From assembly GCF_003334405.1 (NCBI RefSeq), contig NZ_QOWM01000001.1: 64,000 nt of DNA, one strand, 5' to 3'. Made by a program: the position numbers and the translations under genes. Source of the DNA: Escherichia coli (GTDB lineage Bacteria; Pseudomonadota; Gammaproteobacteria; Enterobacterales; Enterobacteriaceae). The notes beneath the pieces are model-generated. The model was not told the origin of the DNA, ran no database searches, and was given only the letters and a program-made list of their open reading frames with translations. Below, piece by piece: positions 40,337-40,853 of this stretch; positions within the stretch are counted from its first letter, which is position 1, and every line of letters starts with the position of its first letter.

Positions 40337-40534
40337 ACGGCGGAAAGGGCCGCAGTGGATAATACACTAACAGAACAATAATAACTCTCTTTTGCTTGAC
40401 AAAAAGAGAGTTACTGGCGAGTATTGTCTCCGCTGAGACGCGCTTGCATTACTACGGTAATACAACCTGCTGGAAAGGCCGCGAACCGGACCAGCAACAA
40501 AAAACCGCCTGATTTTGGCGGTTTTTTGTTTTTT
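40337..40534. repeat. Paralogous module A of the sseB-sseA spacer
   Basis: Shares with module B a conserved 5' block (82/91 nt identical) containing a perfect inverted repeat, then a ~40-nt divergent core and a ~55-nt conserved 3' block ending in a terminator. Confidence 0.8.
40499..40534. terminator. Bidirectional intrinsic terminator inside module A
   Basis: AAAAAACCGCC-tgatttt-GGCGGTTTTTTGTTTTTT. The A-run upstream and T-run downstream make it terminator-like on both strands. Confidence 0.65.
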
Positions 40535-40658
40535 AAAGGAAAGTGAATTTACATGTTTAAGTAATATCTTTTACCGGTTAGAATTTTTAATTTTGAGCAG
40601 GATTTGTTTATATTTGTCTGAATTCGGACTAATAAGCCAGGTTATTTTATTACCGAAC

Positions 40659-40853
40659 ACGGCGGAAAGGGCCGGTGTCGATAATACGCTAAATAAACAA
40701 TAATTACTCTCTTTTGCTTGACAAAAAGAGAGTTACTGGTGAGTATTGTTTTGCTGTGAAGCACCTGCGTTGCTCATGTAACACAAGTCAACCTGCTGGA
40801 AAGGCCGCGAACCAGACTAGCAATAAAAAACCGCCAAATTCGGCGGTTTTTTA
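40659..40853. repeat. Paralogous module B of the sseB-sseA spacer
   Basis: Same architecture as module A. Its terminator doubles as the sseA terminator. Confidence 0.8.
40825..40853. terminator. Bidirectional intrinsic terminator of module B / sseA
   Basis: AAAAAACCGCC-aaattc-GGCGGTTTTTT, 16 nt beyond the sseA stop codon (minus strand). Confidence 0.7.

Follow-up and report, generated by a model that had tools for sequence, protein, structure and literature searches.

A perfect inverted repeat around a predicted antitoxin −35 box is specific to one Escherichia coli allele of the timPR control region

What is a perfect inverted repeat with a consensus −35 hexamer in its loop doing beside a toxin gene, and does its presence in two neighbouring copies argue for a function? 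The repeat lies in a 64,000-nucleotide stretch of Escherichia coli DNA, the whole of which was analysed and is hereafter called the window. An initial annotation described it as perfect in two modules, with 11-bp arms at 40383–40412 in module A. Direct reading and repeat finders recover it in both modules, and the arms in module A prove to be longer than described: 12 bp, perfect (40382–40393 and 40402–40413), around an 8-nt loop (40394–40401, GCTTGACA), so that the element at 40382–40413 reads TAACTCTCTTTT-gcttgaca-AAAAGAGAGTTA. The module B element (40706–40733) reads ACTCTCTTTT-gcttgaca-AAAAGAGAGT; its arms are 10 bp long, the next position is a mismatch and the one after that a further pair. 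The hexamer TTGACA occupies 40396–40401 in module A and 40718–40723 in module B, and GAGTAT follows exactly 17 bp past it in each (40419–40424 and 40741–40746).

The palindrome is real and non-random. Allowing up to three mismatches, its 30-mer occurs at two places in the 64-kb window, modules A and B, where none is expected, and a pattern made of the arms alone likewise matches only these two. A first-order Markov control predicts 0.2–0.8 inverted repeats with arms of at least 10–11 bp per 64 kb. Most other perfect inverted repeats of like size in the window have stems rich in G+C, and they include at least three terminator hairpins of the locus described below. The palindrome is A/T-rich, with one pyrimidine and one purine arm. 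We considered and rejected H-DNA, because the arms form an inverted rather than a mirror repeat.

The surroundings identify the locus. In the window hscA, fdx, iscX, pepB and sseB follow one another on the plus strand with sseA on the minus strand, and the spacer between sseB and sseA is the one that in E. coli houses timP (ryfA) and the divergent antitoxin sRNA TimR (RyfB). The ryfA RNA is the mRNA of a small toxic inner-membrane protein, TimP; the 5′ end of TimR pairs with the timP 5′UTR and blocks translation, a type I toxin-antitoxin arrangement in which TimP toxicity and rescue by TimR were demonstrated in Salmonella (PMC7667032). This has been called into question for APEC E. coli (PMC13188913). 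In Shigella, transcripts of about 100 nt diverge from each ryfA copy, and TimR is known there as RyfB1 (PMC5333039).

The window contains each part of such a system: a ryfA family RNA, a small ORF, and a divergent sRNA that is complementary to the toxin 5′UTR and is followed by a terminator. The timP mRNA (40050–40353, minus strand) matches Rfam RF00126 over its full length with 314.9 bits. It includes the 41-residue TimP ORF (40082–40207, minus strand; annotated as timP in RefSeq), whose N-terminus is signal-sequence-like, and a TimR target site (40272–40290, minus strand) recognized by its complementarity to the TimR seed. On the plus strand, the RyfB-type sRNA TimR-A (about 100 nt, 40431–40530) has its seed at 40432–40450 and ends in a bidirectional terminator (40496–40530, −20.5 kcal/mol); TimR-B (40753–40857) has its seed at 40753–40771 and its terminator at 40820–40857. 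The terminators of the locus range from −17.4 to −20.5 kcal/mol.

No family in Rfam 15 covers TimR/RyfB or the palindrome, and sub-threshold Rfam matches to ohsC, AgrB and OrzO-P were set aside as confined to the terminators. TimR lacks a family there though it is kept in at least seven genera, with GCYTGCRTTRC at the 5′ end and GCTGGAAAGGCCGC...GACCAGC plus a terminator at the 3′ end.

The hexamer in the loop, with the GAGTAT that follows it, is on comparative evidence a sigma-70 promoter, much as the initial annotation had suspected; the RNA that it drives, which the annotation had left unnamed, is the antitoxin TimR. The −35 box of timR-A matches consensus at 6/6 positions. Its −10 box, set off by a 17-bp spacer, matches at 3/6, with A2 and T6 present, and was not listed by a promoter scan that needs 4/6. 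The corresponding boxes of timR-B lie at 40718–40723 and 40741–40746. When loci were aligned with the ryfA 5′ end and the body of TimR as anchors, TTGAC[A/T]-17-NANTAT was present in 17/17 of them, from seven genera (Escherichia, Salmonella, Citrobacter, Superficieibacter, Yersinia, Rahnella and Erwinia), the −10 taking the forms GAGTAT, GACTAT, CAATAT and AAATAT. TTGACA is moreover invariant in all eight distinct K-12-type haplotypes.

These orthologous loci were gathered in three ways: by DNA pattern scan, through SseB as a neighbour and through TimP homologues. The scan, which used the ryfA hairpin pattern GCGGTCNNNGCANNGACCGCAC, was unspecific, returning mostly unrelated G+C-rich genomes, with 15 Enterobacterales among at least 120 loci. 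The SseB route led, outside the genus, to Salmonella only; timP is missing beside sseB in Enterobacter, Klebsiella, Kosakonia and one Citrobacter.

The TimR seed gives the promoter its transcript. It begins 5–6 nt past the −10 and, in four specificity types, agrees at 16–17 of 18 positions with the timP target from the same locus, though the seed itself differs by lineage (GAGACGCGCTTGC, GTGGGGTGCCTGC and ACGGTGTGCCTGC are examples). This co-variation of antitoxin seed and toxin target fixes the TimR transcript and its approximate start, which would lie at about 40431 in module A and about 40753 in module B. The published divergent transcripts of about 100 nt agree with this assignment (PMC5333039). 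At low resolution, a SELEX peak of the RpoD holoenzyme falls in the sseA–ryfA spacer (PMC3946193), and an RpoS-holoenzyme peak falls there too (PMC5493296).

The toxin promoters face the other way. In Salmonella, the timP ORF runs from +145 to +261 of the transcript (PMC7667032), and transferring the +145 offset to the window would put the timP start at 40351, so that the palindrome sits between two divergent starts that are roughly 80 bp apart. A genus-conserved −10 box, TATTAT (40364–40359, minus strand), precedes this start, taken as 40351 by homology, and defines a promoter that we call P1; across genera it appears as TATTAT, TACTAT, TACAAT or TATGAT, always equally far from the ryfA 5′ end. 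The P1 −35 position (40387–40382, GAGTTA) falls within the left arm of the palindrome.

The loop also carries a second minus-strand hexamer. TTGTCA (40402–40397), 16 bp and TATTGT (40380–40375) together make a promoter-like site that matches consensus at 9/12 positions, with a predicted start at about 40368; the promoter scan detected it independently in both modules, the module B counterpart lying at 40724–40697. The same site has been printed as the predicted constitutive ryfA promoter beneath the RpoD-holoenzyme SELEX peak, in a spacer flagged for H-NS as well (PMC3946193). As a second toxin promoter it is only a candidate, a consensus match under a low-resolution peak, and it is not kept outside the K-12-type allele. 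In that allele two −35 boxes on opposite strands overlap in the loop, and one arm makes up the proximal part of each spacer.

The timP −10/start region carries a further resemblance: 40353–40363 on the minus strand reads TTATCCACT, an 8/9 match to the DnaA-box consensus TTATCCACA, and the module B counterpart (40675–40685, minus strand) reads TTATCGACA. The DnaA-box-like site is not kept in other alleles and is therefore probably due to chance.

With both starts placed, the possibility that the palindrome acts as a stem-loop in the 5′ part of a transcript, which the initial annotation had offered as one of two readings, becomes close to untenable. As plus-strand RNA the hairpin would indeed be stable (−16.3 kcal/mol). 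However, the palindrome occupies about −18 to −49 relative to the timR start (~40431, plus strand) and −31 to −62 relative to the timP start (40351, minus strand); lying upstream of both, it would not be the 5′ stem-loop of either RNA. The Rfam ryfA model stops at 40353, no Rfam family matches the palindrome, and the arms show no covariation.

A hairpin on the minus strand could instead protect the toxin gene from transcription entering from outside: read-through from sseA or IS128 would fold the palindrome, continue into UUAUUGUUCUGUU and stop before timP. Both copies were flagged by a terminator scan, on the minus strand only, and the minus-strand RNA hairpin (−15.4 kcal/mol, z = −4.0) runs into UUAUUGUU, with 6 U among the first 8 tail bases. 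Yet the stem has only three G-C pairs and is weaker than the terminators of the locus, and the strong bidirectional terminator at 40496–40530 already stands upstream. The combination that marks an intrinsic terminator, a G+C-rich stem, a U tract and the end of a transcription unit, is not found here; the palindrome is inside a promoter region. Its pairs do not covary, and it is missing from other alleles that face the same read-through. We regard such an insulating terminator as a long shot.

IS128 itself (40485–40693, minus strand; Rfam RF00125, 262 bits) is the minus-strand product of module B. It resembles ryfA only over its first ~25 nt, the remainder being A/T-rich and devoid of a timP ORF; the bidirectional terminator of TimR-A is where it stops. 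In the one functional screen that we found, overexpression of IS128 gave no phenotype (PMC4606813).

Does the second copy of the palindrome speak for selection? The initial annotation had argued that preservation in both modules, despite substitutions close by, points to function. The observation is literally true. Promoter module A (40337–40427) is repeated at 40659–40749 with 90% identity, the nine mismatches in 91 nt include one in the outer arm, at 40383, and the 28-nt core is untouched. Nevertheless, the probability of zero substitutions in that core is 0.03, an identical stretch of 34 nt or more would arise somewhere with a probability of 0.11, and the identical run doubles as promoter −35 and spacer. 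The argument is weak because the copies stem from a recent duplication or a conversion tract. Indeed, module B combines a TimR body like that of the ancestral-type allele with a promoter like that of module A, which makes a conversion tract just as likely an explanation as independent preservation.

The seeds of the two modules also differ in fit. The resident timP target (40272–40290) matches the TimR-B seed at 16/18 positions (19 contiguous pairs, 89%), whereas it matches the adjacent TimR-A seed at only 13/18 (74%). Since the distal TimR-B fits the resident target better than TimR-A does, the K-12 arrangement resembles a mosaic, its TimR-A being ill-matched to the resident toxin. In the single-module strains 042 and SK1144, an A-type seed matches its own timP target at 17/18 positions.

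Comparison across genera separates the promoter from the symmetry around it. For each locus, the best inverted repeat between the two starts was compared with 300 shuffles. The repeat is significant in module A and in E. coli 042 (p = 0.000 for both) and in module B (p = 0.010), and p is at least 0.19 in the 14 other loci: 0.19 in Salmonella, 0.22–0.26 in three copies of the second Escherichia allele, 0.91 in Citrobacter, 1.0 in Superficieibacter, 0.80 in Erwinia, 0.94 in E. whittamii, 0.25–1.0 in three Yersinia and 0.28–0.99 in three Rahnella. Among the loci tested, the inverted repeat is thus significant only in the K-12-type E. coli allele, and a significant repeat is absent from the six other genera, from E. 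albertii and E. whittamii and from the second E. coli allele. Covariation that had seemed visible by eye, between Citrobacter and E. coli and among Yersinia species, was rejected by the shuffle test.

Escherichia albertii and two cryptic-clade strains have a non-palindromic layout, with AAAAGAGAGTAT overlapping the −10. This layout is common to Salmonella and Citrobacter and is therefore probably ancestral; the K-12-type layout is, by the same comparison, derived. Strains of the E. whittamii type have the K-12-type layout in an imperfect version, with 8/10 pairs.

Other symmetry occurs in these promoters. The Salmonella timR promoter has a different perfect 7-bp palindrome, CTCCCTT-aa-AAGGGAG, in its spacer and −10 (3638–3660 of locus record L124), and an AAAAGRGAG motif recurs at the timR −10 of Salmonella, Citrobacter, E. 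albertii and one E. coli allele.

Variation within E. coli leads to a similar picture. The exact 32-mer of the palindrome is present in 3,277 of 5,426 genomes, at 4,884 places, all of them chromosomal and never more than three per genome, which is consistent with copies at the timPR locus only. A further 1,014 of the 5,426 genomes hold the loop variant ACTTGACA with intact arms, so that the two common forms differ only in the loop (G or A at 40394) and perfect 12-bp arms occur in about 79% of E. coli genomes. Flanking 32-mers provide the scale: that of the timP −10 (40350–40381) is found in 4,511 and that of TimR-A (40414–40445) in 3,254 of the 5,426 genomes. With a frequency close to that of the TimR-A flank and below that of the timP −10 flank, the exact palindrome does not exceed its neighbours in conservation.

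Among the eight distinct haplotypes, counted without phylogenetic correction, 5 of 24 arm positions vary (40383, 40392, 40393, 40407 and 40409), similar to the 12 of 43 between the timP start and the left arm; in the remaining spacer and −10, 2 of 11 vary. Five of the 12 arm pairs vary, all of them on one side, and none of the 12 is altered on both sides. In this small sample of eight haplotypes the arms would accordingly bear no detectable sign of selection. The intact arms in about 79% of genomes and the loop-only difference between the common forms would also fit selection on the arms.

One Escherichia sp. genome (GCA_020783085.1) carries G40394T, which extends the perfect arms to 13 bp (TAACTCTCTTTTT/AAAAAGAGAGTTA) around a 6-nt loop, CTTGAC; position 40394 is thus tri-allelic (G, A, T) across Escherichia.

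We weighed a function for the arms against their dispensability. In the first case a dimeric DNA-binding protein, sitting on both arms, would occlude the overlapping −35 boxes and supply a transcriptional input to timPR. What the initial annotation had seen in favour of such an operator, perfect dyad symmetry centred on a −35 box and overlap with a promoter, stands, and the arms are intact in most genomes while the loop is polymorphic. There are also precedents: the divergent type I systems tisB/istR and dinQ/agrB lie under a palindromic LexA box. What does not stand is the expectation of a conserved site. The half-sites are not kept in the orthologous promoters of the six other genera, E. albertii, E. 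whittamii and the second E. coli allele; the recurring AAAAGRGAG motif has its complement at spacings of 2, 8 or at least 19 nt, which a rigid dimer would not tolerate; natural changes in the arms are one-sided and uncompensated; and 32 bp is long for a single dimer. A search for the same palindrome elsewhere, which the initial annotation had proposed as a check, returned near-exact copies at the timPR locus only: no other is present in any of the 5,426 E. coli genomes, which argues against a regulon, and none in the window at up to three mismatches.

To our knowledge, no established motif fits the arms. As leads rather than tests, we compared them with the motifs of LexA, CRP, FNR, Fur, IHF, CpxR and OmpR and of NarL, PhoP, IscR, MqsA and RutR, and know of no convincing match among these; that of SlyA reaches 9/12 to TTAGCAAGCTAA across the loop, which does not convince us either. 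A full-text literature search for the palindrome sequence returned nothing, and the papers that we found on TimR, its promoter and its start site report no regulator or binding protein. Groups studying the system name the regulation of TimR and timP transcription as an open question, which leaves room for an operator (PMC11228461). On balance we consider an operator unlikely.

A second functional reading needs no protein. Negative supercoiling would extrude the repeat as a cruciform, place the −35 boxes in single-stranded loops and so make transcription sensitive to supercoiling; this reading is entirely inferential. In its favour, the 12-bp repeat is perfect and A/T-rich and has a short loop, the −35 lies exactly in that loop, and the single-stranded DNA hairpin in module A is stable (−9.5 kcal/mol, z = −6.4). 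Arms of 12 bp are, however, near the lower limit of length for extrusion in vivo, those of module B are only 10 bp long (−7.6 kcal/mol), and the repeat is not kept in relatives. A cruciform switch seems to us very improbable. Taken together, a recently evolved operator or supercoiling-sensitive cruciform that gates both −35 boxes and sets the toxin/antitoxin ratio in most E. coli is doubtful.

The reading that we favour, with some confidence, is that the palindrome is the core of a divergent timP/timR control region of about 80 bp and that the symmetry of its arms is young, confined to the K-12-type allele and dispensable. The timR promoter would have its −35 in the loop, a 17-bp spacer whose first 12 bp are the right arm, the −10 GAGTAT and a start at about 40431; the left arm would lie at about −37 to −48 of this promoter and, on the other strand, at −31 to −42 of toxin P1. 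Because the −35 boxes overlap, RNA polymerase presumably cannot occupy both directions simultaneously. The arm symmetry would be inherited by descent, having reached module B through duplication or gene conversion, and would not be needed for timPR function; we infer that it is neutral. It is most likely a quasi-palindrome perfected by mutation, which at most modulates the promoters.

Known systems help to place this dispensable symmetry. Template switching in E. coli can correct quasi-palindromes, turning an imperfect into a perfect inverted repeat in one event. E. whittamii holds the imperfect 8/10 version, so the repeat may have been perfected in E. coli or may have decayed in E. whittamii. 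In tisB/istR-1 and dinQ/agrB, as in timPR, a toxin mRNA and an antitoxin sRNA diverge from a short shared region, and an inverted repeat overlaps the promoter. The motif there, the LexA box (CTGT-N8-ACAG), is a known one, kept across species and repeated across a regulon; by contrast, the timPR palindrome is not known to match any motif, is specific to one allele and, as far as near-exact copies go, is unique in the genome. Warman et al. reportedly described, in 2021, bidirectional promoters that arise from DNA-sequence symmetry, with overlapping −10 elements in the cases described. timPR likewise has elements on both strands, but here it is the −35 hexamers, TTGACA and TTGTCA, that overlap.

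The closest relatives are timP/TimR of Salmonella (PMC7667032) and ryfA/RyfB1 of Shigella (PMC5333039), which share the locus, the genes and the position next to sseB, as well as a ryfA/timP mRNA with a long structured 5′UTR and a divergent sRNA of about 100 nt whose 5′ end pairs with it. Salmonella has the same TTGACA-17-GAGTAT antitoxin promoter as E. coli. It differs in that no repeat flanks the −35, and the K-12-type window differs from it in having a second tandem module of promoter and TimR. The timPR system is thus known and the minus-strand hexamers are in print; the symmetric arms are an undescribed, allele-specific detail.

The palindrome can accordingly be placed upstream of both RNAs, on the −35 box predicted for the antitoxin and overlapping the published predicted ryfA promoter. 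Its symmetry belongs to one allele and is no conserved part of timPR, and the comparative data call for no function of the arms. Should the arms bind a protein or sense supercoiling, they would offer a first handle on the transcriptional regulation of timPR, in E. coli only. Either would then be the first reported transcriptional input to timPR and, in the case of an operator, one that arose de novo within one species.

The loci collected here also vary in ways that do not touch the palindrome itself. In Yersinia similis, a match to Rfam Ysr224 (133.9 bits; 4361–4467 of locus record L073) lies directly upstream of ryfA on the same strand, and this adjacency suggests that the locus is organised unlike the divergent TimR layout. 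In E. coli EC476 a second, complete timP copy is set apart from the first by a fragment of sseB, and in E. coli 06-00048 the IS3-family element ISEcB1 has inserted into the promoter/timR region, about 200 bp upstream of the timP ORF. Within the timP coding region of the window, and antisense to timP, there is a promoter-like TTGTCG-16-TATTAT (40119–40146, plus strand), overlapped by a terminator-like hairpin (40124–40140, plus strand). Finally, sseA and the timP ORF lie about 140 nt apart in two E. marmotae loci, with the timP 5′UTR fused at the TimR target directly to the timR body. The fusion looks like a deletion by direct-repeat recombination between target site and seed; both promoters and the timR terminator are gone, and the timP ORF is still annotated.
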